64,000 nucleotides of DNA from a phage: sequence record PZ809289.1; one strand, 5' to 3'. Position numbers and translations under genes: made by a program. Under the pieces are notes generated by a model. That model saw only the letters and a program-made list of their open reading frames with translations, did not search any database and was not told the origin of the DNA. Shown here one piece after another: positions 6,661-62,251 of the stretch. Numbering within the stretch: the first letter of the stretch is position 1; every line of letters begins with the position of its first letter.

Positions 6661-7398
6661 ATGGCAAAGGAATTCCATTATAATTACTTGACTGTAATAA
6701 AAACCCATAAGGCAAATTATTACTATGTAGGTAAACACTCCACTGATAATCTTTCAGACGGGTATTATGGAAGTGGTACGGTAGTTAAAAATATTTGTAA
6801 AAAGCATCCTTATAAAACTCGTATATTAGAATTCTTCGAATCTGAAGAAGAGGCGTATGCCGCCGAAATTCCTTTAGTTGAAAAGGCTAAATTAAAATAT
6901 GGTAAGCATTCTTTAAATTTTGCTGATGGCGGAAGAGGTAAAAAGAAAGGAACCAAATTATCTAATTTAACTAAACAGAAAATGTCTAGGTCTAGAAAAG
7001 GAGTTAAATGGAGCAAAGCCAGAATAGAAGCTTCTAAATTCACCACTTCTAATAAAGGTTTAAACCATTATTCCAATAGAATAGGATTTAGTGATGAGCA
7101 TAAAGCTAAAATAGGATTAGCCTCTAAAAAATTAAAAGGATTTAAACATAGCGCTGAAACCATAGAAAATATGAGTAACGCCAAAAAGGGCAAAAAGAAT
7201 CCCATGTACGGTAAAAAGGGCGCTATGGCAGGAAAACCTTCTCCTATAAGAAACGAATCTTGGAAATTTTACGATGAATTAAAACTCTTATGGGAAGAAT
7301 CCAATAAGCCTTCAGCATATATGTTTAAAAAGATAGCTATAAGCAAAGGTTATCCTAATTGCTCTTATAGAGGAGTTGTATTTAAATGGCAAGCTTGA
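6661..7398 (+). CDS. GIY-YIG homing endonuclease (Seg-like) with NUMOD3-type repeats
   Basis: YNYLTVIKTHKANYYYVGKHS GIY-YIG core; repeated NPMYGKKG-type motifs; inserted just upstream of tk. Confidence 0.75.
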   Translation: MAKEFHYNYLTVIKTHKANYYYVGKHSTDNLSDGYYGSGTVVKNICKKHPYKTRILEFFESEEEAYAAEIPLVEKAKLKYGKHSLNFADGGRGKKKGTKLSNLTKQKMSRSRKGVKWSKARIEASKFTTSNKGLNHYSNRIGFSDEHKAKIGLASKKLKGFKHSAETIENMSNAKKGKKNPMYGKKGAMAGKPSPIRNESWKFYDELKLLWEESNKPSAYMFKKIAISKGYPNCSYRGVVFKWQA

Positions 7399-22441: not shown

Positions 22442-22999
22442 ATGACCGAAATTAAACTGACTAAAAATAACTATGTAAATAATAAGGAGCTTCTGAAAGC
22501 TATCACCCAATGGAAAACAGAACTCAGAGAAAATACCGATCCTAATAAAATAGTTCGCCAGAACGACGTTATCGGCTTGGCTATTATGCTCATTGCTGAA
22601 GGACTAAGTAAACGTTTCAACTTCTCAGGATATACCCAATCTTGGAAGCAAGAAATGATTGCTGATGGAATCGAAGCTTCGATTAAAGGTCTTCACAACT
22701 TCGACGAAACAAAATACGACAACCCACATGCATATATCACTATGGCTTGTTTTAATGCCTTCGTTCAGCGTATCAAAAAAGAACGTAAAGAAATGGCAAA
22801 GAAATATAGCTACTTCGTCCATAATGTCTATGACAGTAATGATGACGACATGGTAGGTATTGCAGATGAAACCTTTATCCAAGATATCTACGACAAAATG
22901 ACTCAGTATGAAACCTCTTTAACTAAAGCACCAGGGTCTGATAAGAGTGCCGAACCTAAAGTTGGTGAACTGGATTTTTTATATGGAACATCAGATTAA
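22442..22999 (+). CDS. 55: Late-transcription sigma factor gp55
   Basis: ...[91 protein letters not shown]... essentially T4 gp55 (185 aa). Confidence 0.95.
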
Positions 23000-23213
23000 T
23001 ATCACTCCACTTTTAGATGGAATGGAAGACTTCGAAGCACTCCCTTATTTTATTAAATTGATATTACGGGATGTTAAAGGTCTTCCTATTGATATTGACC
23101 CACTTAACGTCAGGAATATTGAATTCACTTCTCCTGACAATAACGTAGATTACCGTTATCATGTTGAGAACGCTAATTTCTACTTCACTATTGAATTGAC
23201 TCCAAAGGATTAA
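22983..23213 (+). CDS. Hypothetical protein (76 aa)
   Basis: ATG overlapping end of gene 55; track start 22947 further upstream. Confidence 0.45.
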
Positions 23214-23214
23214 T

Positions 23215-23526
23215 ATGCAAAGCCATGACATTTCTCAATTGACTGATGAGCAAATTGAAGAAGCCCAGCAACGTTTAGAAGAGCACAATATTAAAGAAGC
23301 TAATTCTCAAGCGGCTAAGATTCTTAAGAAGAATGCTCGTGAAATCCGTCGTTTAAATCTCCATGCCCAAGGCGCTGTACTTGAAAACAACTTTGAAGCA
23401 TATAAGTACGCTTTAATTAAATTACGTGGTATTTACCGTCAACCTGTTACTGATGAACTTGTTCAATTGATGTGGGAATCTACCCGCAAACAAATTTGGG
23501 AAATCGTCAATGGCCCTAGTAAATAA
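23215..23526 (+). CDS. Hypothetical protein (103 aa)
   Basis: RBS AAAGGA. Confidence 0.5.
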   Translation: MQSHDISQLTDEQIEEAQQRLEEHNIKEANSQAAKILKKNAREIRRLNLHAQGAVLENNFEAYKYALIKLRGIYRQPVTDELVQLMWESTRKQIWEIVNGPSK

Positions 23527-23710
23527 ACCCTTTAAACGGCTTCTTATTGGAGCCGCCTTTAGACTTCGCTCATACGGTAATATCTGTATTAAGCAGTCCG
23601 AAACCGAATATAAAATGGTCGGCCAGTATTCCGATGGAATTTTTCGGATTGAGCCCGTAGCCAAGGTTTGGGTAGATTCTCATCAACTTAAGAAATGGTG
23701 GCAACGATGA
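23510..23710 (+). CDS. Hypothetical protein (66 aa)
   Basis: ORF overlapping upstream end; weak RBS. Confidence 0.35.
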   Translation: MALVNKPFKRLLIGAAFRLRSYGNICIKQSETEYKMVGQYSDGIFRIEPVAKVWVDSHQLKKWWQR

Positions 23711-23768
23711 TAACGTGGACAGGCGGCTAATGAAAGACGAATACGAAAAAGTTTAAGAGGTTGTATGA

Positions 23769-23942
23769 ATGACGAATTCGATGGATTTTGATAAGATTAA
23801 ATCTGACAAAAATGAGATGATACTTCAATTTGAAGCCGCTCGTATTAAAGCAGAAAATGAAGGTACTATTACCTATAAGCCTATCAAGTTCAGGTCTAAT
23901 CACGAACCTCTGTACGGTGTATTAGTTGGTAAAGGAGCTTAG
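23769..23942 (+). CDS. Hypothetical small protein (57 aa)
   Basis: RBS AAGAGG; ends inside terminator stem; below track cutoff. Confidence 0.35.
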   Translation: MTNSMDFDKIKSDKNEMILQFEAARIKAENEGTITYKPIKFRSNHEPLYGVLVGKGA

Positions 23943-23953
23943 GCTCCTTTTTT
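23934..23953 (+). terminator. Rho-independent terminator (GGAGC-UUAG-GCUCC-U6)
   Basis: 5-bp GC stem, 4-nt loop, T-run. Confidence 0.7.
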
Positions 23954-23982
23954 GCTTTATATTCGGATGATAAAATAAATCT

Positions 23983-24600
23983 ATGAAATACATCACATAC
24001 CTGACAATATATTCCGGGACTAAGCTTCCACCGTTTTATATAGGGTCTACCACTTTAGAGAAGCATTCAAAAGGATATCACGGGAGTGTCCTTTCTAAAG
24101 CATATAAAGAAATCTATAAAAATGAGCTTTTAGAGCATCCAGAATTATTTGACTCATGTATTGTAAGTGAACACCCTACAAGAGAAGAGGCTTTAGAAGC
24201 TGAAAGAATGTACCAGTTAAGAACGGATGCGGCCCAAAATCCTCTATTCTTTAATAGGGCTGTCGCAGCTCCTAAAGGATTCTTTGGGCTTTCGCTACCT
24301 AAAGAGCAACACCCTCTTTACGGCTCTCATAATGCTAAAGGGTATATTCATTCCTATAATCCTATTACATTAGAACAAACCTTTGCACCTACAGTCCCCG
24401 AAGGATATGTAGAAGGTCGTTCACCTAATTATAAAGCATCTAGTCATAATAAGGGCAGGAAGTGGTATAATAACGGAATAGAACATAAACTGATTAACCC
24501 ATCTAATATTCCTGATGGGTGGGTCAAAGGTAAACTTCCTGGCTCTGCTTCTAAAGCAGCCTCCAAAATGTGGGAACGGATACGTAATGAAAATTCTTAA
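23983..24600 (+). CDS. GIY-YIG homing endonuclease (Seg-like), paralog of 56748
   Basis: MKYITYLTIYSGTKLPPFYIGST GIY-YIG core; NUMOD-like HPLYGSHNAKG; sits where T4 has alpha-gt (between 55 and 47). Confidence 0.75.
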   Translation: MKYITYLTIYSGTKLPPFYIGSTTLEKHSKGYHGSVLSKAYKEIYKNELLEHPELFDSCIVSEHPTREEALEAERMYQLRTDAAQNPLFFNRAVAAPKGFFGLSLPKEQHPLYGSHNAKGYIHSYNPITLEQTFAPTVPEGYVEGRSPNYKASSHNKGRKWYNNGIEHKLINPSNIPDGWVKGKLPGSASKAASKMWERIRNENS

Positions 24601-25609
24601 TACGGGTGACTGGCACCTTGGAGTGAAGAACGACGACCCTTGGGTGCAAAATATTCAATTGGCAGGCATTAAAGACGCCATCAATTATTCTAAAGCAAAT
24701 GGTATCACTGTCTGGATTCAGTATGGTGATATTTTTGATGTTCGTAAAGCAATTACTCATAAGTGCATGGAATTTGCCAGACATATTTCAGATTTGCTTA
24801 AAGAAAATGGCATTACCATGTATACTGTTGTTGGTAACCATGATGCACACTACAAAAATACCTTGACACCGAACGCTGCTTCTGAAGTTCTGGGTAAATA
24901 CGACCATATCAAGGTTATTGAGAAACCTACTACGGTTAATTTTGATGGTACAGAAATTGATTTGATTCCATGGATGTGTGAAGAAAACACGACCGATATC
25001 ATGGACCATATCAAAAATACTACTGCCGATTTCTGTATTGGCCACTGGGAATTAAATGGTTTCTATTTCTATAAAGGAATGAAATCACATGGTTTAGAAC
25101 CTGATTTCCTTAAGAAGTATAAGCAAGTATGGTCTGGTCACTTCCACACCATTTCTGATGCAGCAAACGTCAAGTATATTGGTACGCCATGGACCCTGAC
25201 TGCAGGTGATGAGAACGACCCTCGTGGCTTCTGGATTTTCGATACAGAAACCCATAAAATGGATTTCATCATCAATGAAACTTGTTGGCATCGTAAGATT
25301 CATTATCCGAATGCGACTATCGATTACAAAGATTTTACAAATATTGCGGTTCGTGTTATAGTCGATAAAATTGATGACGGGCTTACCAAGTTCGAATCTG
25401 AACTTGAAAAGGTTGTTCACTCTTTACGTATTGTGTCTAAGGTAGATAACAGTGTTGATATCGATGATTCTGAAGAGGAAGATGAAGTTAAGTCCCTCTT
25501 GGATATGATGTATGATTATATCGATGCCCTTCCTGATGGCCACACTGAAGACGATGTTAAAGCCCTTAAGACTATGGCCGCACAACTTTATAATGAGGTT
25601 ACACGATGA
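24587..25609 (+). CDS. 47: Recombination nuclease subunit gp47 (Mre11/SbcD-like)
   Basis: MKILNTGDWHLGVKNDDPW... calcineurin-like phosphoesterase motifs (GDWHLG, GDIFD, GNHD, GHWE...H); track ORF 24515 begins upstream in frame. Confidence 0.9.
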   Translation: MKILNTGDWHLGVKNDDPWVQNIQLAGIKDAINYSKANGITVWIQYGDIFDVRKAITHKCMEFARHISDLLKENGITMYTVVGNHDAHYKNTLTPNAASEVLGKYDHIKVIEKPTTVNFDGTEIDLIPWMCEENTTDIMDHIKNTTADFCIGHWELNGFYFYKGMKSHGLEPDFLKKYKQVWSGHFHTISDAANVKYIGTPWTLTAGDENDPRGFWIFDTETHKMDFIINETCWHRKIHYPNATIDYKDFTNIAVRVIVDKIDDGLTKFESELEKVVHSLRIVSKVDNSVDIDDSEEEDEVKSLLDMMYDYIDALPDGHTEDDVKALKTMAAQLYNEVTR

Positions 25610-25869
25610 CTTTAGATGAATTCAAAAAATCAGGCCTTGAACTAGAACACGACTGCATCGTTATTGATGACGATAACCAAACGAATATCATTAAGTTCTG
25701 GTTTGAAGCCGTGAGCACTCGCGATACCAACGAGCTTATTAAAGTTTATGTTGCTACTGATTGGGCTGTGGAATTTAGCTTTAATGTAATGGTAGATGAT
25801 ACTCCAGAAACATTAATTCATATGGCTGAATCATGCATCAAGGATGCTTATAATGATGAAAATGTATAA
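25606..25869 (+). CDS. Hypothetical protein (87 aa)
   Basis: ATGA coupling with 47. Confidence 0.5.
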   Translation: MTLDEFKKSGLELEHDCIVIDDDNQTNIIKFWFEAVSTRDTNELIKVYVATDWAVEFSFNVMVDDTPETLIHMAESCIKDAYNDENV

Positions 25870-26068
25870 ACATGATTTTCATATTGGCGATGGCTGGTTC
25901 GGTAATGTAGAATGGGACGTGGATGGTTCTTGGTATACCGGAACTATGTATGTCACTTCTGAATATTCTGAAGGTGTTTCATGGGCCATGGAACTTGACG
26001 ACGTGTTTGCTTCTTCCGAAGAAATGCTAGAATATGCTGAACAAACAATTCGTGAGAACAATACATGA
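25853..26068 (+). CDS. Hypothetical acidic protein (71 aa; track start 25844)
   Basis: RBS AAGGA 9 nt upstream of ATG 25853. Confidence 0.45.
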   Translation: MMKMYKHDFHIGDGWFGNVEWDVDGSWYTGTMYVTSEYSEGVSWAMELDDVFASSEEMLEYAEQTIRENNT

Positions 26069-27747
26069 AAACGTTTAAGTTAAAGAAAGTAACGTATAAA
26101 AATATTATGTCGGTAGGCCAGCAACCTATTACAATCCAACTTGATAAGGTCCAAAAGACCTTAGTCACCGGTAAAAACGGCGCTGGTAAATCTACGTTCC
26201 TTGAAGCCGTTACATTTGCTCTGTTCGGTAAGCCTTTTCGTGATGTTAAGAAAGGGCAGTTGATTAACTCAAGTAATAAGAAAGACCTTTTGGTCGAACT
26301 GTGGATGGAATATGATGGCAAAGAATACTATATCAAGCGCGGGCAAAAACCCAATATTTTTGAAATCTCTTGTGGCGGTGAACGTCTTGATGAATCTGCC
26401 AGCAGTAAAGACTTCCAAGCAGAATTTGAACAGCTTATCGGAATGTCATATACCAGTTTCAAACAGATTGTCGTACTTGGTACAGCAGGGTATACCCCTT
26501 TCATGGGTTTGTCGACCCCTGCGCGCCGAAAGCTTGTGGAAGACCTCTTAGAGGTTTCTGTATTAGCGGATATGGACAAGTTGAACAAATCTTTGATTCG
26601 TGAGACTAATAGCCAAATCCAAGTAATCGACGTTAAACAGGATTCTATTATCCAGCAAATTAAAATTTATAATGACAACGAAGAACGTCAGCGTAAATTA
26701 TCAGGTGAGAACGCAGCACGTCTACAAACAATGTACGATGAGCTCGTTAAAGAAGCCAGGACTGCGAAGGGCAATATAGAAAAACTGACTGATGAATTAC
26801 TCAATGTCATCGTCGATGATGACCCTAGCAACTCTATGAGTGACCTGAGCAATAAAGGATTTGCAATCAAGAATGATATGGCAACCTTTACTAAGGTCGT
26901 GAAATTATACGAAACCGGTGGTAGTTGTCCTACATGTATGCAAGGACTGGAAGAGCATGGAAATATCCTTACTAAAATTAAGGATAAGAACTTTGAGCTT
27001 CAAAAATCTTTGGATAAGATTAACGAACAGTACCAAGAACTCAAGCTCATTAAGGACCAAGTAACCGAACAACGTAATAAAGCTCTGGCTATTAAATCTC
27101 AGATAGCTACTCATAAGCAACAAGCCATTACTGCCGTAGAGAAAGCTAAAAAAGTTAAAGTATTAATCGACCAAGCAGCTGCTGAGTTCGTAAGTAATGC
27201 CGAAGAGATTGCCGCGCTTCAAGCAGAGCTTGATAAAATCGTCTCTACCAAATCGTCCTTGGTAATGGAAAAATACCATCGTGGAATTCTGACAGAAATG
27301 TTGAAGGATACTGGTATTAAAGGTTCCATTATTAAGAAATACATTCCTATCTTTAATAAGCAGATAAATTCTTATTTGAAGATTATGGAAGCGGACTACG
27401 TCTTTACACTAGACGAAGAGTTCAATGAGACGATTAAATCACGTGGACGTGAAGACTTTAGTTATGCTTCATTTTCACAGGGTGAGAAAGCACGTATTGA
27501 TATCGCACTACTTTTTACATGGCGCGATATTGCTTCTAAGGTATCAGGTGTTAATATCAGCACGTTAATTCTTGATGAGGTATTTGACAGTGCTACTGAC
27601 GCTGAAGGCGTTAAGACCATTGCAACCATCTTGAATAGCCTTGAGGATACGAACGTGTTCATTATCTCTCACCGAGACCATGACCCACAAGCTTATGGCC
27701 AACATCTTCAAATGAAGAAAGTTGGACGATTCACGGTGATGGAATGA
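26065..27747 (+). CDS. 46: Recombination ATPase subunit gp46 (Rad50/SbcC-like)
   Basis: 560 aa; Walker A GKNGAGKST, Zn-hook CPTC, signature FSQGEKAR, Walker B LILDE; collinear with T4 gp46. Confidence 0.95.
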   Translation: MKTFKLKKVTYKNIMSVGQQPITIQLDKVQKTLVTGKNGAGKSTFLEAVTFALFGKPFRDVKKGQLINSSNKKDLLVELWMEYDGKEYYIKRGQKPNIFEISCGGERLDESASSKDFQAEFEQLIGMSYTSFKQIVVLGTAGYTPFMGLSTPARRKLVEDLLEVSVLADMDKLNKSLIRETNSQIQVIDVKQDSIIQQIKIYNDNEERQRKLSGENAARLQTMYDELVKEARTAKGNIEKLTDELLNVIVDDDPSNSMSDLSNKGFAIKNDMATFTKVVKLYETGGSCPTCMQGLEEHGNILTKIKDKNFELQKSLDKINEQYQELKLIKDQVTEQRNKALAIKSQIATHKQQAITAVEKAKKVKVLIDQAAAEFVSNAEEIAALQAELDKIVSTKSSLVMEKYHRGILTEMLKDTGIKGSIIKKYIPIFNKQINSYLKIMEADYVFTLDEEFNETIKSRGREDFSYASFSQGEKARIDIALLFTWRDIASKVSGVNISTLILDEVFDSATDAEGVKTIATILNSLEDTNVFIISHRDHDPQAYGQHLQMKKVGRFTVME

Positions 27748-28433: not shown

Positions 28434-29132
28434 ATGAAATTCTCTAAAGAAACTCTGAACATTCTGAAAAACTTCTCCAGTATTAACCCAGGTATCATGC
28501 TTAAGCCTGGTAACACTATTCTAACTCGTTCAGTAACGGGTGCAAGTTATGGTGAAGCTACTGTAAGCGATACCTTTGATATCGAAGCCGCAATCTATGA
28601 TTTGAACGGCTTCTTAAGTATTCTGTCATTGGTATCTGATAGTGCTGAAGTTTCGGTAAGTGAAGACCAAACCACCTTAATTATTAAAGACCAACGTTCA
28701 ACTATTAAATGGCCTATTGCCGACCCAAGTACAATTGCATTCCCAAGCAAAGCTATTCCATTCCCGGTGGCTGAAGTTATTTTTGACCTTAAAGCCGAAG
28801 ATTACCAACAGTTGATGCGTGTGTCCTCTGGATTGAGTATTGATACATTTGCTATCACTGTAGACAACGGTAAAATTGTAATCAATGGCTACAAACAAGT
28901 TGATGATAAGGACCTGGCACGTCCATTGTATTCCTTAGTGGTTGCAGACCATGATGGTCCTGAATTCAAATTCATTATCAACAAAACTAATATGAAAATG
29001 ATGCCTGCCGATTACCATGTATTGTTATGGGCTCGTGGTGAAGGTCAGGACGCTCGTTTCGCAGCCAAGTTTGAAGGTTCACAAGCTTCTTATGTATTGG
29101 CTATGGAAGCAGGCTCAAGCCACTCGTTCTAA
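28434..29132 (+). CDS. 45: Sliding clamp gp45
   Basis: MKFSKETLNILKNFSSINPGIMLKPGNTILTRSVTGASYGEA...AIYDLNGFLSILSLV... collinear with T4 gp45 (about 230 aa). Confidence 0.95.
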   Translation: MKFSKETLNILKNFSSINPGIMLKPGNTILTRSVTGASYGEATVSDTFDIEAAIYDLNGFLSILSLVSDSAEVSVSEDQTTLIIKDQRSTIKWPIADPSTIAFPSKAIPFPVAEVIFDLKAEDYQQLMRVSSGLSIDTFAITVDNGKIVINGYKQVDDKDLARPLYSLVVADHDGPEFKFIINKTNMKMMPADYHVLLWARGEGQDARFAAKFEGSQASYVLAMEAGSSHSF

Positions 29133-29710
29133 TGTATATATGTTATCATAATACGATAACCAACACTAAAACCAAGTGTGTCTATCATTATTTTGGTAGA
29201 CACCGTGTTACTGCTGAAGAATACTACGGTACAGGTAAGTTTGTTAAGAAATGCAAACGAGAAAATGCTATTACTCCAGGTCTTTGGGAGTTTTGTGTTG
29301 AAGTTATCCATACAGTGGATACGTTTAAAGAAGCCAAGATTATTGAAGAAGAGCTTGTTAAAGAAGGCATATCAAAATATGGTATCCTTTGTGTTAATAA
29401 GAATCCTGGTGGTGATGGCGGTGTGGATTACCACACCGAAGAATCTAAACGTAAAATGTCAGAAACTAGAACAGGAAAATCAAGAATATTTTCCGAAAGT
29501 CATAAAGAAAATTTAAGTAAACGAGCCAGAAAATACTCTGATGTTTGGTCCGAACCTGTATATTCAAATCTTAAAACCATTTGGCTGGAAACAGGTATGT
29601 TAAAACGCGGACGGTTTAGTACGCTTTTACAAAAATATGGGTATAATTATTCTGCGAATGAATTGAATAAAATTGTTAAACATTTTAATGAGGAAAATAA
29701 TAATGAGTAA
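29132..29710 (+). CDS. GIY-YIG-like homing endonuclease inserted between 45 and 44
   Basis: YICYHNT...VYHYFGRH core like the other Seg-like ORFs; NUMOD-like NPGGDGG...SRIFSESHKENLSKRA; TAATG coupling. Confidence 0.6.
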   Translation: MYICYHNTITNTKTKCVYHYFGRHRVTAEEYYGTGKFVKKCKRENAITPGLWEFCVEVIHTVDTFKEAKIIEEELVKEGISKYGILCVNKNPGGDGGVDYHTEESKRKMSETRTGKSRIFSESHKENLSKRARKYSDVWSEPVYSNLKTIWLETGMLKRGRFSTLLQKYGYNYSANELNKIVKHFNEENNNE

Positions 29711-55497: not shown

Positions 55498-55716
55498 ATG
55501 GCTAAAGTTACTGTGAACTCGACTCGTGAAGAATTTGAAGATGTTCTGTTCAACCCTGATTTAATCGTGGTTCAAAAGGAACATTCTGATACGTTTTCTC
55601 ATTTATCGTCGGTTTATGTATACGAAAACCAAGGTGATGAAAACCCTATCTATGCGGTGTTCCGTGAAATCACTGCTGAAGGCACCGACTTCTGGAAGGA
55701 AACTTATAATGCTTAA
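55498..55716 (+). CDS. Hypothetical protein (72 aa)
   Basis: RBS GAGAGGAAAA. Confidence 0.5.
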   Translation: MAKVTVNSTREEFEDVLFNPDLIVVQKEHSDTFSHLSSVYVYENQGDENPIYAVFREITAEGTDFWKETYNA

Positions 55717-56236
55717 TCAAGAACTTGAATTTGAAAAAGGTAAATGGTACTATTTTAAAGATGATGCGGCAGAAGCTGAATTCCGTAAGCTGAATTCCCA
55801 TAATATTAGGAATCCTAATAATTCTTCTATAGCAGATATCATTGTCAATTCTGAAGGTTTTTGCCCTGTTAGATTAGCGGCAGGTTATGTGATGAACGTG
55901 GACTTGGCTTATGGTGATAACACTGATATGGTTTTATATCCAAGCGAGCGTAAATTCTTTACTGAAATGGTTGTAGTTGACAGTGAAGACGAATGGGCTG
56001 AAGATGGTTTCTCTGAAGAAGACAAGTCTGAAGATGCAGCCCCATCTGAACCAAGCGATTTCCCTTTGACTAAAATCACTATGGAAATGGGTTTAGTTAG
56101 CAGTGAAGACGAAGACCAGTCTGAAGATGCCGCCCCATCTGAACCTAGTGATTTCCCTTTGACTAAAATCACTATCTCTAATAATTCTGAAGCCTGGACT
56201 GTTTACCAGATGTTGAAAGCTCACTTTAAGGAATAA
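55709..56236 (+). CDS. Hypothetical acidic protein with internal tandem repeat (175 aa)
   Basis: ATG overlapping upstream stop (ATGCTTAA); contains two copies of SEDAAPSEPSDFPLTKIT; track start 55616 overlaps upstream gene. Confidence 0.5.
   Translation: MLNQELEFEKGKWYYFKDDAAEAEFRKLNSHNIRNPNNSSIADIIVNSEGFCPVRLAAGYVMNVDLAYGDNTDMVLYPSERKFFTEMVVVDSEDEWAEDGFSEEDKSEDAAPSEPSDFPLTKITMEMGLVSSEDEDQSEDAAPSEPSDFPLTKITISNNSEAWTVYQMLKAHFKE
56027..56175 (+). repeat. Intragenic direct repeat, two 56-bp copies 93 bp apart
   Basis: 56027-56082 and 56120-56175 differ at about 3 positions; in-frame duplication. Confidence 0.8.
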
Positions 56237-56420: not shown

Positions 56421-56681
56421 ATGAAATATATTAATCGTTCTATTGCAGCTCTCGTATTAGCAGTTTCGTTGGTTGGATGTACTGATGCTGATAATGCTAC
56501 CCGTGTATTGGATGCAAATGGCTACGAACAAATCCAAATCACAGGATACAACCTATTCGGCTGTTCTGAAGATGATTTCCAACGTACAGGCTTTATTGCT
56601 GTGGGTCCGACAGGTAAAAGGGTTGAAGGAACAGTTTGTTCTGGGTTATTCTTTAAAAAGTCGACCATTCGATTTGATTAA
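56421..56681 (+). CDS. Predicted lipoprotein (86 aa)
   Basis: Signal sequence with lipobox LVGC. Confidence 0.55.
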   Translation: MKYINRSIAALVLAVSLVGCTDADNATRVLDANGYEQIQITGYNLFGCSEDDFQRTGFIAVGPTGKRVEGTVCSGLFFKKSTIRFD

Positions 56682-56700
56682 GGGCTTCGGCCCTTTTCTT
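56681..56700 (+). terminator. Rho-independent terminator (AGGGC-UUCG-GCCCU-U4)
   Basis: Stem-loop begins at last base of upstream stop codon. Confidence 0.7.
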
Positions 56701-56747
56701 GTTAAGCAAAGTATCCAAATCCTTAAATCTATGTTATAATACATATT

Positions 56748-57428
56748 ATGAAATATATAACATACTTAACAATATATGATGGAACAAAGCTACCTCCATT
56801 TTATATAGGCTCCACTTATTTGGATAAACACCTAGCTGGATATCATGGTTCGGTGACATCCAAAAAGTACGAAGACCTATATAATAAAGAGCTTGAGGAA
56901 CATCCTGAATTATTTGATAGCATGATTTTGGGTGAATTTGAAACCAGAGAAGAAGCTACATTTTGCGAGCTTTATTACCAAAAACTTTATAACGTGGTCA
57001 AAAGTAATTTATTTTTCAATATGGCATATGCTACCGTTGACGGATGTTTTGGTATGGATGTTTGTAAAGAAAATAATCCATTTTGGAACCATAAACATTC
57101 TGAAAGTACATTAAAAGCCCAATCTGATGCTAAGATTGGAGAGCTTAATCCTATGTACGGGACTAAACGCCCTGAGCATTCTAAAGCAATGTCAAAAGAA
57201 AATAATCCTTTTTATGATAAGAAACACACCGAAGAAGGATTGGTTAAGTGTGGAATTAAAAATCGTAAAAGTCCGGTATGGGAATATGAATCTGCTTTAG
57301 AAAAATTATGGTTAGAATTAGATAAACCTAAATTGGCTATGTTTATGCGAGAAAGTATTAAACGCGGTTTTCCTGAAGGTTCATACAAAAATATTTTACG
57401 ACAATTCGAGAGAAGACATAATGATTGA
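56748..57428 (+). CDS. GIY-YIG homing endonuclease (Seg-like), paralog of 23983
   Basis: MKYITYLTIYDGTKLPPFYIGSTYLDKH...; NUMOD3 repeats NPFWNHKHSE, NPMYGTKRPEHS, NPFYDKKHTEEG; directly upstream of gene 39. Confidence 0.75.
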   Translation: MKYITYLTIYDGTKLPPFYIGSTYLDKHLAGYHGSVTSKKYEDLYNKELEEHPELFDSMILGEFETREEATFCELYYQKLYNVVKSNLFFNMAYATVDGCFGMDVCKENNPFWNHKHSESTLKAQSDAKIGELNPMYGTKRPEHSKAMSKENNPFYDKKHTEEGLVKCGIKNRKSPVWEYESALEKLWLELDKPKLAMFMRESIKRGFPEGSYKNILRQFERRHND

Positions 57429-59241
57429 TAATAAAATTGAAATGCTTAGTATTAAAGAACACGTTATTAAACGCCCTGGAATGTACATAGGAAGTGTATC
57501 ATTCGAGGACCATGAACGTTTTCTCTTTGGCGAATTTAAAAAAATTCGTTATGTTGCGGGTGTTCTCAAATTAGTAGATGAAATCATTGATAACTCTGTC
57601 GATGAAGCCATTCGTACCAATTTTAAATTTGCAAATAAAATCTCAGTTGGTATTGATTTAAAAACTAATAAAGTTACTGTAGAAGATAATGGTCGTGGCA
57701 TTCCACAGGCTATGGTTATTACTCCTGAAGGTGAAGAAATCCCAGGACCTGTGGCTGCCTGGACCAAGACTATGGCAGGTGGTAACTTTGGCGACGATAA
57801 AGAACGAGTCACGGGTGGCCAAAACGGTGTAGGCTCAAGCTTAACAAATATTTTCTCTACATTGTTTACAGGTGTAACTTCAGATGGCAAAAATGAGCTA
57901 TCAGTAAATTGTTCTAATAACGCCGATAACGTTTCTTGGAAAACCAAAGCATCTAAAGCCAATGGAACAAAGGTTGAATTTATTCCAGATTTTACCCACT
58001 TTGAAATGTCGGCTTTTGACCAAATCTATTTAGATGTTACTTTAGACCGTTTGCAAACCTTGTCAGTGGTTTATCCCGACATAGAATTTAAATTTAATGG
58101 TAAAAAGGTTCAAGGCCAGTTTAAAAAATATGCTAAGCAGTTTGATGAAGAAGTTGTAACTCAAGAACAAGAAACATGCTCTATTGCAATCGGTCGAAGC
58201 CCTGACGGATTCCGTCATTTAACTTATGTGAACAATATTCATACTAAAAATGGTGGCCATCACATTGAATGCGTAATGGATGATATGTGTGATGAATTGA
58301 TTCCAGCTATTAAAAAGAAATATAAAATCGAAGTAACTAAGGCTCGCGTTAAAGAATGTCTAACTATGTTGATGTTTGTCCGTGGAATGAAAAACCTTCG
58401 TTTTGATTCCCAGACTAAAGAGCGTTTGACTAGCCCTTATGGCGAAATCCGTAGTCATATTCAGTTAGATACTAAAAAGTTGGCCAAAAGCATTCTGAAT
58501 TCTGAAGCAGTATTGATGCCCATTATCGAAGCTGCTTTAGCACGTAAATTAGCAGCTGAAAAGGCTGCCGAAACTAAAGCCGCTAAGAAAGCTTCTAAAG
58601 CCAAGGTCCATAAGCATATTAAAGCTAACCTATACGGCAAAGATGCTGATACAACCCTGTTCCTAACCGAAGGTGATTCCGCTATGGGTCCTTTCATTGA
58701 AGTCCGTAATAAAGACCTTCAAGGTGGCTATCCATTACGTGGTAAGGTTATGAATACCTGGGGAATGACAGCAACAGATATCATGAAGAACAAGGAACTA
58801 TTTGATATCTGTGCAATCACTGGATTGGTTATTGGTGAACCTGCAGAGAAAACTAACTATCGTAATATTGCTATTATGACTGATGCCGATGTGGATGGTA
58901 CTGGCTCGATTTATCCATCATTGCTAGCCTTCTTTAGTCAATGGCCTGAATTGTTCGAACAAGGCCGAGTACGTTTCTGTAAAACACCTGTAATTATTGC
59001 CCAGGTTGGTAAAGAACAAGAATGGTTCTATGATGTTCCTAGTTATACCAAAGCTAAGGACTCTCTACCAAAACATTCTATTCGGTATATCAAAGGACTA
59101 GGTTCTCTTGAGAAAGCTGAATACCGTCGAATGATTCAAGACCCTAAATTTGATGTGGTTCAATTACCTGAAGATTGGAAAGAACAGTTCGAAATGCTCC
59201 TTGGTAATGACCCACAACTCCGTAAGGCCTGGATGTCGTAA
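57421..59241 (+). CDS. 39: DNA topoisomerase II large subunit (GyrB-like ATPase), unsplit 39+60 form
   Basis: 606 aa; GHKL ATPase N-terminus aligning to T4 gp39, continuing without interruption through the region T4 encodes as gene 60. Confidence 0.9.
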   Translation: MIDNKIEMLSIKEHVIKRPGMYIGSVSFEDHERFLFGEFKKIRYVAGVLKLVDEIIDNSVDEAIRTNFKFANKISVGIDLKTNKVTVEDNGRGIPQAMVITPEGEEIPGPVAAWTKTMAGGNFGDDKERVTGGQNGVGSSLTNIFSTLFTGVTSDGKNELSVNCSNNADNVSWKTKASKANGTKVEFIPDFTHFEMSAFDQIYLDVTLDRLQTLSVVYPDIEFKFNGKKVQGQFKKYAKQFDEEVVTQEQETCSIAIGRSPDGFRHLTYVNNIHTKNGGHHIECVMDDMCDELIPAIKKKYKIEVTKARVKECLTMLMFVRGMKNLRFDSQTKERLTSPYGEIRSHIQLDTKKLAKSILNSEAVLMPIIEAALARKLAAEKAAETKAAKKASKAKVHKHIKANLYGKDADTTLFLTEGDSAMGPFIEVRNKDLQGGYPLRGKVMNTWGMTATDIMKNKELFDICAITGLVIGEPAEKTNYRNIAIMTDADVDGTGSIYPSLLAFFSQWPELFEQGRVRFCKTPVIIAQVGKEQEWFYDVPSYTKAKDSLPKHSIRYIKGLGSLEKAEYRRMIQDPKFDVVQLPEDWKEQFEMLLGNDPQLRKAWMS

Positions 59242-60040: not shown

Positions 60041-62251
60041 ATGATTATTGAAACCGAAAAAGAACAAATCATTGGTAATGGTGCTAAGTCCACAGGCTTT
60101 ACTATTCAGGCATCGCCTAAGGTCTTTAAAATTTTGTCATCAGACCTTTATAGTAATAAAGTACGTGCCGTAGTTCGTGAACTGATTACTAACATGATTG
60201 ATGCCCATATTCTAAATGGTAATAAAGAACGTTGGAAAGTACAGGTTCCTGGTAAACTGGACCCTCGCTTTGTATGCCGTGACTTCGGGCCGGGTATGAG
60301 TGATTTCCAAATTCGTGGTGATGAAAACGAAACAGGTTTGTATAACTCTTATTTCGCGTCGTCCAAAACCGCTTCTAACGATTTCATCGGCGGCTTTGGC
60401 CTTGGTTCAAAATCTCCGTTCAGTTATACCGAAACGTTTAATATTACCTCATGGCACAATGGCGAAGTTCGCGGTTATGTAGCATATATGGATGGTGATG
60501 GCCCGCAGATTAAACCTACTTTCGTAGAACCTATGCAGCCAGGTGATAAAACAGGTATCGAAATCACGGTTCCTGTTGATGAAGAAGATTTCCGTAAGTT
60601 TGAAACTGAAGTTCGTTATATCATGCGGCCTTTCATTGGTCTTGGTGATGTAGACGGTGTTGAAGTTGATTATTTCCCTGAATTTGACGATTACCATCCT
60701 GTAACCACTACAAATTATGGCAGCTTCGAACGTTCAGGACTTTATGCAGTTTATGGTGGTATTGTTTATCCATTGGATTCCGCCTATAATAAAGGCACGT
60801 GGATGCGTACTCGCCATGATGTAGTTTATATTAAGTTCCCTATGGGTTCACTGGATATTGCTCCTTCTCGTGAAGTGTTGTCTCTTGATAAACGTACGAT
60901 GGAAAATATTGCAACCCGTATCGAAGCACTGGATGCAGTGGTCTTTAAAAACGATACACAGGAATGGGTTGAATCTGATAATCCACGCCATGTTTATCGT
61001 GACCTTTCTAACCTTGGTTACAGTGCTCGTGACTATCTTACCAAAAAAGGTGGAACTAGCCTGTTTACTACAGAAAAATTGACATATGAGAAATTATACC
61101 AGCGTTATACCCTTCAAAACGACCTTATTAATTTAGGTGTGGTTTACGAAGTCGTTTCAGACCCACGTTTGAAACGAATTAAGTCAAGTGGTAATACTTC
61201 TTCGGTAGCAGGACTTAGTAATTTATTAGGCATTAATAAGAAAGAAATCCATGTTGTTTATGATGATGAAAAAGGTCGTGTGCCATTAGTTCGAGGTCTT
61301 TGGGCTCTGGCAATGGACAACAGTGCTTCGGCTAAGAAAATTGTTAAAGAGAACAATATTCCTAAATACGGAACTGACCTTATTTTTGTCGACCCAAATT
61401 CAATGTTGCAAATGCAACAACTTGAAAAGGTTAAAGAACTTTTTAAAGGTGACACAATTCATTTTTATAAAGTCTCTGAACTGAATAAAATTGTTAAGCC
61501 ATGGATTCCGGTTACTGTCCGTTCATCAGAACCGCGTCCTAAAACACCGAGTGCTTATCGTTGGTTCATTAAAGACGGGCGCTGGCAACAAGAGACCATG
61601 TATTTGACTGCTGCCGAAGCAGAAGAAATTACAGGTTATGTTCTGTTTGGCAGTCGTTCTGATATTATGGGAATGGATGAAGCTTATGGTATCTTTGACA
61701 TCAATACCACTACCATGTGTCGTATGGCTAATTTGATTGGTGCTACCGAATTCCATATCATTCGCCCTCAGATTGCCAAAAAGATTAAAAAGTTAGGCCA
61801 ATGCGAATGCTTGATGGAAGCTACATTAGAAGCTTATGCTGAAGCCTTAGACGCGGTAGATGTTGATGACTACCTTGGTAGCAATACTCGAGCTCGGTAT
61901 TACCTTGAAATCATTGCTAAGTTCCCTCAGCTTAATTTCATGACCAAGTATTTCAGTGATAAGCCGGTAACTGAAGCATATACTCGTCTGAGTAATTTCT
62001 ATGATATATTCCGTTATATGAATTTCCATGGTTATATCACTGATGATAAGCTTTCCGTTATCAAGAAAATTTGTAACAATACTTTTTTTAAGTTGACTGA
62101 TAATGCTTCAAGCAACAATGATAAAATGACTGTACAGTTTGAATCTGATTACCATTTAGTTTCGGACTACATGTATCGTCGTGGAACATCCATTACCGAG
62201 GCTTCTGTAGCTCAAATTGTTAAATTCATGAAAGCCGTGGAAGCGGCTTAA
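60041..62251 (+). CDS. rIIA: rIIA membrane-associated protein (lysis-inhibition/exclusion locus)
   Basis: 736 aa; N-terminal GHKL-like motif VRAVVRELITNMIDAH and GFGLGSKS; size and position match T4 rIIA. Confidence 0.9.
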   Translation: MIIETEKEQIIGNGAKSTGFTIQASPKVFKILSSDLYSNKVRAVVRELITNMIDAHILNGNKERWKVQVPGKLDPRFVCRDFGPGMSDFQIRGDENETGLYNSYFASSKTASNDFIGGFGLGSKSPFSYTETFNITSWHNGEVRGYVAYMDGDGPQIKPTFVEPMQPGDKTGIEITVPVDEEDFRKFETEVRYIMRPFIGLGDVDGVEVDYFPEFDDYHPVTTTNYGSFERSGLYAVYGGIVYPLDSAYNKGTWMRTRHDVVYIKFPMGSLDIAPSREVLSLDKRTMENIATRIEALDAVVFKNDTQEWVESDNPRHVYRDLSNLGYSARDYLTKKGGTSLFTTEKLTYEKLYQRYTLQNDLINLGVVYEVVSDPRLKRIKSSGNTSSVAGLSNLLGINKKEIHVVYDDEKGRVPLVRGLWALAMDNSASAKKIVKENNIPKYGTDLIFVDPNSMLQMQQLEKVKELFKGDTIHFYKVSELNKIVKPWIPVTVRSSEPRPKTPSAYRWFIKDGRWQQETMYLTAAEAEEITGYVLFGSRSDIMGMDEAYGIFDINTTTMCRMANLIGATEFHIIRPQIAKKIKKLGQCECLMEATLEAYAEALDAVDVDDYLGSNTRARYYLEIIAKFPQLNFMTKYFSDKPVTEAYTRLSNFYDIFRYMNFHGYITDDKLSVIKKICNNTFFKLTDNASSNNDKMTVQFESDYHLVSDYMYRRGTSITEASVAQIVKFMKAVEAA

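Follow-up and report, generated by a model that had tools for sequence, protein, structure and literature searches.

Two free-standing Seg-type GIY-YIG homing endonuclease genes beside genes 47 and 39 of a Dhakavirus, related in their catalytic domains and distinct in their DNA-binding modules

Background

The Seg proteins of phage T4 (SegA, B, C, E, F, and G) were shown to be site-specific nucleases, the products of homing endonuclease genes (HEGs); they cleave the adjacent gene in phages without the HEG, and their own genes are passed on preferentially (PMC2988022, PMC2330249). Here, we analyzed two open reading frames (ORFs) of this type in a 64,000-nucleotide (nt) stretch of phage DNA (PZ809289.1, hereafter the window), which megablast places with the JS98-like Dhakaviruses and which comes from a T4-like coliphage. 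Both are free-standing genes on the plus strand: ORF-A (23983..24600, 205 amino acids (aa)) replaces the small gene 47.1 of HEG-less relatives, directly upstream of gene 47, and ORF-B (56748..57428, 226 aa) is inserted between genes 39.1 and 39. We consider it probable, at about 80%, that they are T4 Seg-type free-standing GIY-YIG homing endonuclease genes that were acquired independently, each at its own cognate site upstream of 47 or 39, and that spread by intronless homing. For neither junction did literature searches retrieve a HEG that has been named or characterised.

Among the described systems, segG (gene 32.1) is an insertion between genes 59 and 32, and its target is gene 32 of T2 (PMC2988022). 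Like ORF-A and ORF-B, it is free-standing and directly precedes a gene with a key part in replication or recombination, and the three proteins have the motifs 'PP(F/Y)YIGS' and 'EAER.YQL' in common, with no His after YIG, unlike SegA-F. Liu et al. (2003) reportedly observed co-conversion of flanking markers for SegG, which resembles the divergent patches found beside ORF-A and ORF-B. The differences lie in the locus (59/32 instead of a-gt.2/47 and 39.1/39), in a catalytic domain that is only about 25–30% identical, and in an unrelated C-terminal half; moreover, cleavage and marker exclusion by SegG are experimental facts, whereas ORF-A and ORF-B are known here from sequence and predicted structure. 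Two other T4 enzymes resemble one ORF each in the C-terminal half: SegE (inh/uvsW) has the repeated hairpin-plus-'PxG(F/W)VKG' module of ORF-A, and SegA (uvsX/beta-gt) the terminal helical module of ORF-B (E 1e-4). The G-Y-x-G-S motif is common to SegE, SegA, and both ORFs, although SegA-F belong to a catalytic subgroup with 'YIGxH.T..L.DGYMGSG' and have other loci and other targets.

I-TevI of the td intron (PDB 1LN0, 1MK0, 1I3J) shares with both ORFs an N-terminal nuclease tethered to a C-terminal DNA-binding region. The architecture of ORF-B, with NUMOD3 repeats followed by a helix-turn-helix (HTH)-like domain, is that of SegA, SegF, and I-TevI, and its NUMOD3 region shows a weak alignment with the DNA-binding domain of I-TevI (1i3j). 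In contrast to ORF-A and ORF-B, I-TevI is intron-encoded; sequence identity is about 17–24%, and R27, H31, and the long helix 1 of I-TevI have no aligned counterpart in the two ORFs, where a short helix 1 is followed by the GY(H)GS loop. The HEGs described by Barth et al. 2023 (PMC10448857) likewise sit beside essential genes, show sharp identity breakpoints at the HEG, and exchange their DNA-binding domains modularly, but these are T5orf172 and IPA-HNH HEGs of ICP1-like phages instead of Seg-type GIY-YIG genes of a Dhakavirus. The phenomenon is thus well known (PMC2988022, PMC2993671, PMC10448857), and HEGs beside essential genes, co-conversion, and domain swapping are conceptually nothing new.

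Results

Fold and motifs of the catalytic domain

In both proteins the first 113 residues (23983..24321 in ORF-A and 56748..57086 in ORF-B, plus strand) form the catalytic domain. With 120 and 72 aligned homologues as input, AlphaFold2 models reached a mean predicted local distance difference test score (pLDDT) of 85.7 and 91.0, with about 95–98 in the N-terminal domain of both, and each has the order beta-beta-alpha-alpha-beta-alpha. The predicted structures contain the GIY-YIG fold, i.e., a three-stranded antiparallel beta-sheet with flanking helices within about 100 aa. The catalytic domain of I-TevI was the best structural match for both models; for ORF-B, Foldseek ranked I-TevI structures 1ln0 and 1mk0 first (probability 0.99, target template modelling (TM) score 0.60–0.62), followed by UvrC. 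The initial annotation of this DNA had called the genes Seg-like and had named the absence of a GIY-YIG fold as what would speak against it; the predicted folds match I-TevI, and together with the motifs and the similarity to SegG they bear the call out.

The Tyr, Glu, and Asn residues expected at the active site of such enzymes are in place. Y6 (and Y10) lie on strand 1 and Y19-I20-G21 on strand 2; in ORF-A, conservation applies to Y6, Y19-I-G21, G31-Y32-H33-G34-S35, E74, and N91. Y6 and Y19 are invariant or nearly so in alignments of 26–120 homologues; Y32, E74, and N91 are invariant in the family alignments, while Y6, Y19, G21, and G34 are either invariant or present in at least 90% of the sequences. 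When the four Seg-like proteins of the window were aligned with T4 SegA-G and I-TevI (12 sequences), Y...Y(I/V)G, the G-Y-x-G-S loop, the Glu (E74), and the Asn (N91) were common to them, and the residue of the Y32 column of ORF-A was found in at least 90% of the sequences. E74 and N91 line up with the matching residues of the T4 Seg proteins and correspond in their roles to E75 and N90 of I-TevI. SegG was the best T4 match to the N-terminal domain of ORF-A (30% over 102 aa, E 1e-7, BLASTP). The catalytic domain belongs to a large family: with clustering at 50% identity, 1,276 cluster representatives match it at E ≤ 1e-3 and 1,119 still do so at E ≤ 1e-10, and almost all are 180–330 aa in length and carry the domain at the N-terminus.

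Relationship of the two genes

The catalytic domains of ORF-A and ORF-B are 59% identical over aa 1–113 (E 2e-44, BLASTP), and the N-terminal domain of ORF-A is nearer to that of ORF-B than to those of the other two Seg-like genes of the window or of any T4 Seg. By direct count, 55 of the first 80 residues are identical (69%), close to the 70% given in the initial annotation, which was also right about the extensive nucleotide divergence: the DNA of the first 80 codons is 62.5% identical, with 41% at third codon positions. According to the Nei-Gojobori method, the proportion of synonymous differences (pS) is 0.81, i.e., saturated, at a proportion of nonsynonymous differences (pN) of 0.30, so that the likeness must be ancient, lies at the protein level, and is far above chance. 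The relationship between the two is therefore old and was upheld by selection on the protein.

Past residue 113, BLASTP found no similarity between the two proteins, in agreement with the C-terminal difference noted before. The C-terminal DNA-binding half of ORF-A (24322..24597, plus strand) consists in the AlphaFold2 model of two beta-hairpin repeats with the pattern ...(I/V)P(E/D)G(Y/W)V(E/K)G(R/K) and a terminal helix, and is related to T4 SegE (44% over 63 aa, E 6e-10, BLASTP). In the corresponding half of ORF-B (57087..57425, plus strand), NUMOD3 repeats (Pfam E 1.7e-8) precede a helical HTH-like domain (residues 119–224 are helices in the AlphaFold2 model), and this half is related to the window's ORF 6661 (BLASTP E 3e-12), to T4 SegA (E 1e-4), and to SegF. 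Judged by these profile and sequence matches, the two halves are distinct module types and not diverged copies of one another, and as each matches a different Seg module, retargeting in this family occurs by domain exchange rather than by drift. Almost certainly, ORF-A and ORF-B differ in their targets. A Mosigvirus orthologue of ORF-A (P0011, 267 aa) combines A-type hairpins with a B-type terminal domain.

The two genes are distributed separately. Among relatives, QL01 and IME08 have A without B, Bp7 and IME281 have B without A, and WG01, FB, and JS98 have neither. A-type orthologues (47–99% identical) have gene 47 as their immediate downstream neighbour in Dhakavirus, Tequatrovirus, Mosigvirus, Klebsiella phages, and an Aeromonas Biquartavirus; B-type orthologues (63–100% identical) have gene 39 in that place in Dhakavirus, Mosigvirus, and Klebsiella phages. 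Protein coverage of at least 80% was reached in 95 phage records for type A and in 61 for type B. Since relatives carry only one gene, only the other, or neither, and since each type has orthologues at its own junction in other genera, independent acquisition by horizontal homing or recombination is indicated.

This bears on the origin of the pair, which the initial annotation had ascribed to an old duplication followed by retargeting. The two are indeed anciently diverged relatives with different DNA-binding halves, but a duplication within the genome left no sign. A duplication inside the lineage, with one copy moved to the second junction and its DNA-binding half mutated towards a new target, would account for N-terminal domains that are clearly homologous and closer to each other than to the remaining Seg proteins compared. 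We nevertheless regard it as unlikely, because the C-terminal halves match different Seg modules (SegE for A; ORF 6661, SegA, and NUMOD3 for B) instead of appearing as mutated copies, because of the separate occurrence of the genes in close relatives and the own-junction orthologues in several genera, and because the saturated synonymous sites place the split before the Dhakavirus lineage.

Insertion sites and identity breakpoints

Both genes are intergenic, ORF-A between a-gt.2 and 47 and ORF-B between 39.1 and 39, and the genes on either side are contiguous in HEG-less relatives. They are sporadic among near-identical Dhakaviruses and, in genome comparisons, each lies beside a sharply bounded divergent tract, with flanks that are 97–100% identical, a picture that fits intronless homing with co-conversion.

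Gene 47 (24587..25609, plus strand) codes for a Mre11/SbcD-like recombination nuclease subunit, and its start codon lies within the 3' end of ORF-A: the ORF-A stop codon ends at 24600 and the gene 47 ATG begins at 24587, a 14-nt overlap. Gene 39 (57421..59241, plus strand), encodes the topoisomerase II large subunit, in this phage as a fusion with the gene 60 part, and begins within the 3' end of ORF-B (stop codon ending at 57428, ATG at 57421, 8-nt overlap). The C-terminal residues that are kept in orthologues (...ENS* and ...ND*) are those that overlap the downstream start codon. Both overlaps had been noted in the initial annotation, which called the downstream genes essential; both are DNA-metabolism genes, but the word is loose. 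In T4, mutants in genes 46/47 have a DNA-arrest phenotype and mutants in gene 39 a DNA-delay phenotype.

QL01, IME08, IME540, NC-G, and LQ5 carry ORF-A at the gene 47 junction; WG01, FB, Bp7, and others lack it, WG01 having the small gene 47.1 in its place. In the window, relative to HEG-less WG01, we counted a single mismatch over the 1.46 kb that precede ORF-A (22500–23963), 52 mismatches (82% identity, counted over gene 47 nt 1–282) in a patch covering the first ~280 nt of gene 47 (24595..24868, plus strand), and 0 mismatches in the following 1.2 kb (24869 to 26070). We take this patch to be a co-conversion or immunity tract and the probable target region of the endonuclease. The same pattern recurs in another genus, between Tequatrovirus G9062 (HEG-positive) and T4 (HEG-negative), which are 94% identical in gene 47 nt 1–282 and 98% afterwards. 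The window/WG01 and G9062/T4 pairs have differences in common at gene 47 nt 9, 10, 15, and 18, and a dense cluster of differences between the window and WG01 spans nt 43–96; as pointers to the target site, these positions are suggestive only, the first ones also being within the 3' coding overlap of the HEG.

Two further genomes illustrate variation at this junction. In Bp7, the promoter is still there, but of ORF-A only the initial 15 nt (ATGAAATACAT...) remain and gene 47 begins after another ~20 nt (L002, about 1440–1510), so that this locus looks like a near-complete internal deletion derivative of the endonuclease gene; the Bp7 gene 47 5' allele is of a third, much more divergent type (65% identical to that of the window). 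By eye, the 3' part of the Bp7 remnant and the gene 47 5' end seemed nearer to the arrangement of Mosigvirus AV118 than to that of the window, for which an identity count over gene 47 nt 1–282 gave no support (64% to AV118, 65% to the window). In G9062 (L011, 1920–2000), a 47.1-like sequence is found directly upstream of the A-type HEG, and the HEG ATG stands at the position of the gene 47 ATG in HEG-less phages. Read from this alignment, the G9062 HEG was probably inserted downstream of a retained 47.1, whereas 47.1 was replaced in the Dhakavirus window, and the insertion thus appears to have two slightly differing layouts within the A-type lineage.

As for the gene 39 junction, Bp7 (100% aa identity), IME281, and Mosigvirus phages carry ORF-B there, and QL01, IME08, WG01, and JS98 do not. 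Because of an indel between the alleles, gene 39 was compared with that of HEG-less QL01 in a MAFFT alignment. Genes 39.2–39.1 are 97–100% identical to QL01, the ~1.1-kb block at the 5' end of gene 39 (57421..58555, plus strand) is 52–85% identical, and from 58558 onward identity returns to 97–98%. Phage FB (L014 2262–2420, compared with 56696–57520 of the window) lacks ORF-B and has a QL01-type intergenic region with a MotA-type promoter and a Shine-Dalgarno (SD) sequence, yet from the gene 39 ATG on it carries the allele that is linked to the HEG in the window and Bp7, the joint falling exactly at the start codon. FB is thus either a recombinant from which the HEG was lost or the bearer of a resistant allele from before the invasion.

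Selection and expression context

The ratio of nonsynonymous to synonymous substitution rates (dN/dS) is about 0.11 between ORF-B and its IME281 orthologue and about 0.18 between ORF-A and its G9062 orthologue, and values of about 0.1–0.2 argue for active proteins.

Terminator-like hairpins precede both genes. The first, with a T-run at the end of a-gt.2 (23931..23950, plus strand, from a terminator scan), is identical in WG01, Bp7, and IME08, and the second follows gene 39.1 (56680..56695, plus strand); both are part of the conserved backbone, the first also in phages without the HEG. A strict pattern search placed a candidate T4-like middle promoter directly ahead of ORF-A (23950..23976, plus strand; MotA box TTTGCTTTA, 11-nt spacer, -10 TAAAAT), one of 3 such sites in the 64-kb window. 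The other two lie on the same strand at 24792–24819, inside gene 47 and within the HEG-associated divergent patch, and at 62101–62127. The -10 element of ORF-A ends 6 nt before the ATG with no SD sequence between them; in HEG-less WG01 the same MotA-type promoter stands ahead of 47.1–47 with a normal leader. Ahead of ORF-B, inspection suggested an extended -10-like element (TGTTATAAT, 56732..56740, plus strand), which ends 7 nt before the ATG, again with no SD sequence, and which stands where HEG-less QL01 and FB have a MotA-type middle promoter and an SD sequence ahead of gene 39. A generic sigma-70 promoter scan of both junctions gave nothing above shuffled expectation.

With a terminator just upstream, no SD sequence, and an ATG only 6–7 nt past the -10 element, expression of both HEGs is probably low, and we hold loosely that their messages may be poorly translated or leaderless. 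In T4, HEG expression is tightly limited (PMC2988022, PMC2330249). Leaderless or SD-less expression as a conserved trait of the family was considered and rejected, as the IME281 and AV118 orthologues have normal SD sequences and the G9062 HEG lies behind an intact 47.1. Genes 47 and 39 would be translated from the start codons that overlap the HEG 3' ends.

Alternatively, both genes could have ceased to home, as relics in decay or domesticated, and be kept for the translation-initiation context of 47 and 39 or as DNA-binding regulators. I-TevI, which autorepresses, offers a model for the latter role. The 14- and 8-nt overlaps would fit such a role, as would the displacement by ORF-B of the middle promoter and SD sequence seen in QL01 and FB, the sub-threshold Pfam score and lack of an evident canonical Arg (see Discussion), and the presence in T4 of promoters for essential genes within seg genes (PMC2988022). 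All the same, we find it distinctly improbable: strong purifying selection extends over the entire protein and takes in the catalytic Tyr, Glu, and Asn, the orthologues in the 95 (A) and 61 (B) records are intact and full-length, flanks that are near-identical to those of HEG-less genomes speak for recent transfer, and HEG-less relatives express 47 and 39 without either ORF.

Other features of the window

The gene order of the window, all on the plus strand and reversed with respect to the T4 map, is tk ... 55, a-gt.5–a-gt.2, 47, 46, 45, 44, 62 ... srd, dda ... cef, goF, 39.2, 39.1, 39. By megablast, phage QL01 matches the gene 47 region at 99.8% identity and Bp7 the gene 39 region at 98.7%. 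No single record of the phage collection had both ORF-A and ORF-B among the matches listed, from which we conclude that the window phage is a mosaic of known Dhakavirus types.

A six-frame profile scan found exactly four Seg-like ORFs (6661–7398, 23983–24600, 29132–29710, and 56748–57428). The third gene of this kind (6661..7398, plus strand, 245 aa, with NUMOD3) overlaps the start of tk, and the fourth (29132..29710, plus strand, 192 aa) is flanked by genes 45 and 44; both have a sporadic distribution within Dhakavirus, with IME540, ABTNLS3, and VR5 as carriers of the former and Bp7, PSD2002, LQ5, and MX01 of the latter. All four were never seen together in one phage record among the matches listed. 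JS98, the type phage of the lineage, was reported to be without HEGs (PMC2993671).

Five homing-endonuclease-like genes had originally been counted in the window, a number that falls to four with the removal of ORF 50389–51138. By synteny and full-length similarity (50% identity, E 4e-75), this candidate is the orthologue of T4 Srd, i.e., a conserved syntenic gene and not a mobile homing endonuclease gene. T4 Srd is annotated as an anti-sigma factor or decoy of sigma70. The N-terminal ~115–130 residues of the orthologue match PHROG families labelled endonuclease, HNH endonuclease, and endonuclease VII (E about 1e-16 to 3e-6), and going by these matches Srd may hold a nuclease-derived domain.

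A 68-nt direct repeat was found within ORF 55616–56236, its copies (56015–56082 and 56108–56175, plus strand) being 93% identical at a spacing of 93 nt. It represents a doubled acidic 'SEDAAPSEPSDFPLTKIT' segment of a goF-like protein (phrog_622), and in phage FB ~150 nt are missing at this region. The repeat came from a separate repeat search, as Tandem Repeats Finder reported nothing on the goF-like ORF.

Discussion

Under independent acquisition and intronless homing, a HEG-carrying phage and a HEG-less relative would co-infect one cell, and the C-terminal half of the endonuclease would bind within the HEG-less allele, where the 5' part of gene 47 or gene 39 is the most likely site. The tethered GIY-YIG domain would then make a double-strand break close by, which phage recombination would repair from the HEG-positive genome, copying the HEG together with adjacent polymorphisms (co-conversion). 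The resident genome would be immune, as its own flanking patch differs in sequence.

Several observations weigh against this interpretation. Literature searches found no published study of nuclease activity, cleavage sites, or preferential inheritance for ORF-A or ORF-B. FB carries the HEG-linked gene 39 allele without the HEG, and the divergent patches could also have arisen by ordinary recombination between lineages without a HEG-made break. The reading of low or leaderless expression draws on consensus matches only, and the orthologues of IME281 and AV118, with their normal SD sequences, depart from it. A central Arg (R27 in I-TevI) is considered a defining residue of the GIY-YIG superfamily (PMC1564403), but between YIG and the catalytic Glu there is no invariant Arg that could be aligned to it: helix 1 of the ORF-A/B family is short (residues 25–29), K27 is a majority residue only, and the invariant G31-Y32-x-G34-S35 follows. 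T4 SegA-G, most of them proven nucleases, likewise have no Arg aligned to I-TevI R27.

The sequence models are also unfavourable. Against a cutoff of 22.6 bits, the Pfam GIY-YIG model PF01541 scored below threshold for both ORF-A (14.2 bits, E 0.056) and ORF-B (10.6 bits, E 0.73), and a sequence-profile search of the PDB failed to reach the catalytic domain of I-TevI and reached its DNA-binding domain only weakly. None of the homologues listed had a precomputed PF01541 match, and NCBIfam gave only a weak, sub-threshold group-I-intron-endonuclease match for ORF-B. Curated sequence models are thus almost blind to this N-terminal domain; the PF01541 miss is a sensitivity limit of the model and does not contradict the fold evidence. 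As sequence-profile methods were insufficient, structure prediction was needed.

PHROGs places both ORFs in phrog_10820 ('HNH endonuclease') and phrog_314 ('homing endonuclease'), and the RefSeq records for QL01, Bp7, IME281, and G9062 also read 'HNH endonuclease'. That the proteins are in fact HNH endonucleases can be dismissed, since Pfam and NCBIfam scans of both ORFs contain no HNH family, both predicted folds match GIY-YIG structures and no HNH structure, the motifs line up with the T4 Seg proteins, and other depositors have named the orthologues 'GIY-YIG homing endonuclease'; the label is an annotation error.

Conclusions

The analysis corrects a systematic mis-annotation, in which genes entered in RefSeq and phrog_10820 as 'HNH endonuclease' or 'hypothetical protein' are Seg-type GIY-YIG genes, and it adds up to four Seg-like genes per genome to what is known of the JS98-type (Dhakavirus) lineage. 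The two junctions are clean natural cases of the breakpoints in identity left behind in core genes by intronless homing, and ORF-A and ORF-B, with a common catalytic domain and different DNA-binding modules, form a convenient natural pair for the study of Seg-type retargeting. As a tentative extension, we consider it possible that both belong to a very large SegG-like GIY-YIG branch (about 1,100–1,300 clusters at 50% identity), missed by curated models and widely mislabelled HNH, that does without the canonical central Arg and maybe uses the invariant GY(H)GS loop instead, and whose members may have moved divergent 5' parts of core genes from one phage lineage to another, perhaps between genera, the instances here being ~280 nt of gene 47 and ~1.1 kb of gene 39. 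If this were true, a small selfish gene would be a vehicle of allele replacement in the replication and recombination core of the Straboviridae.

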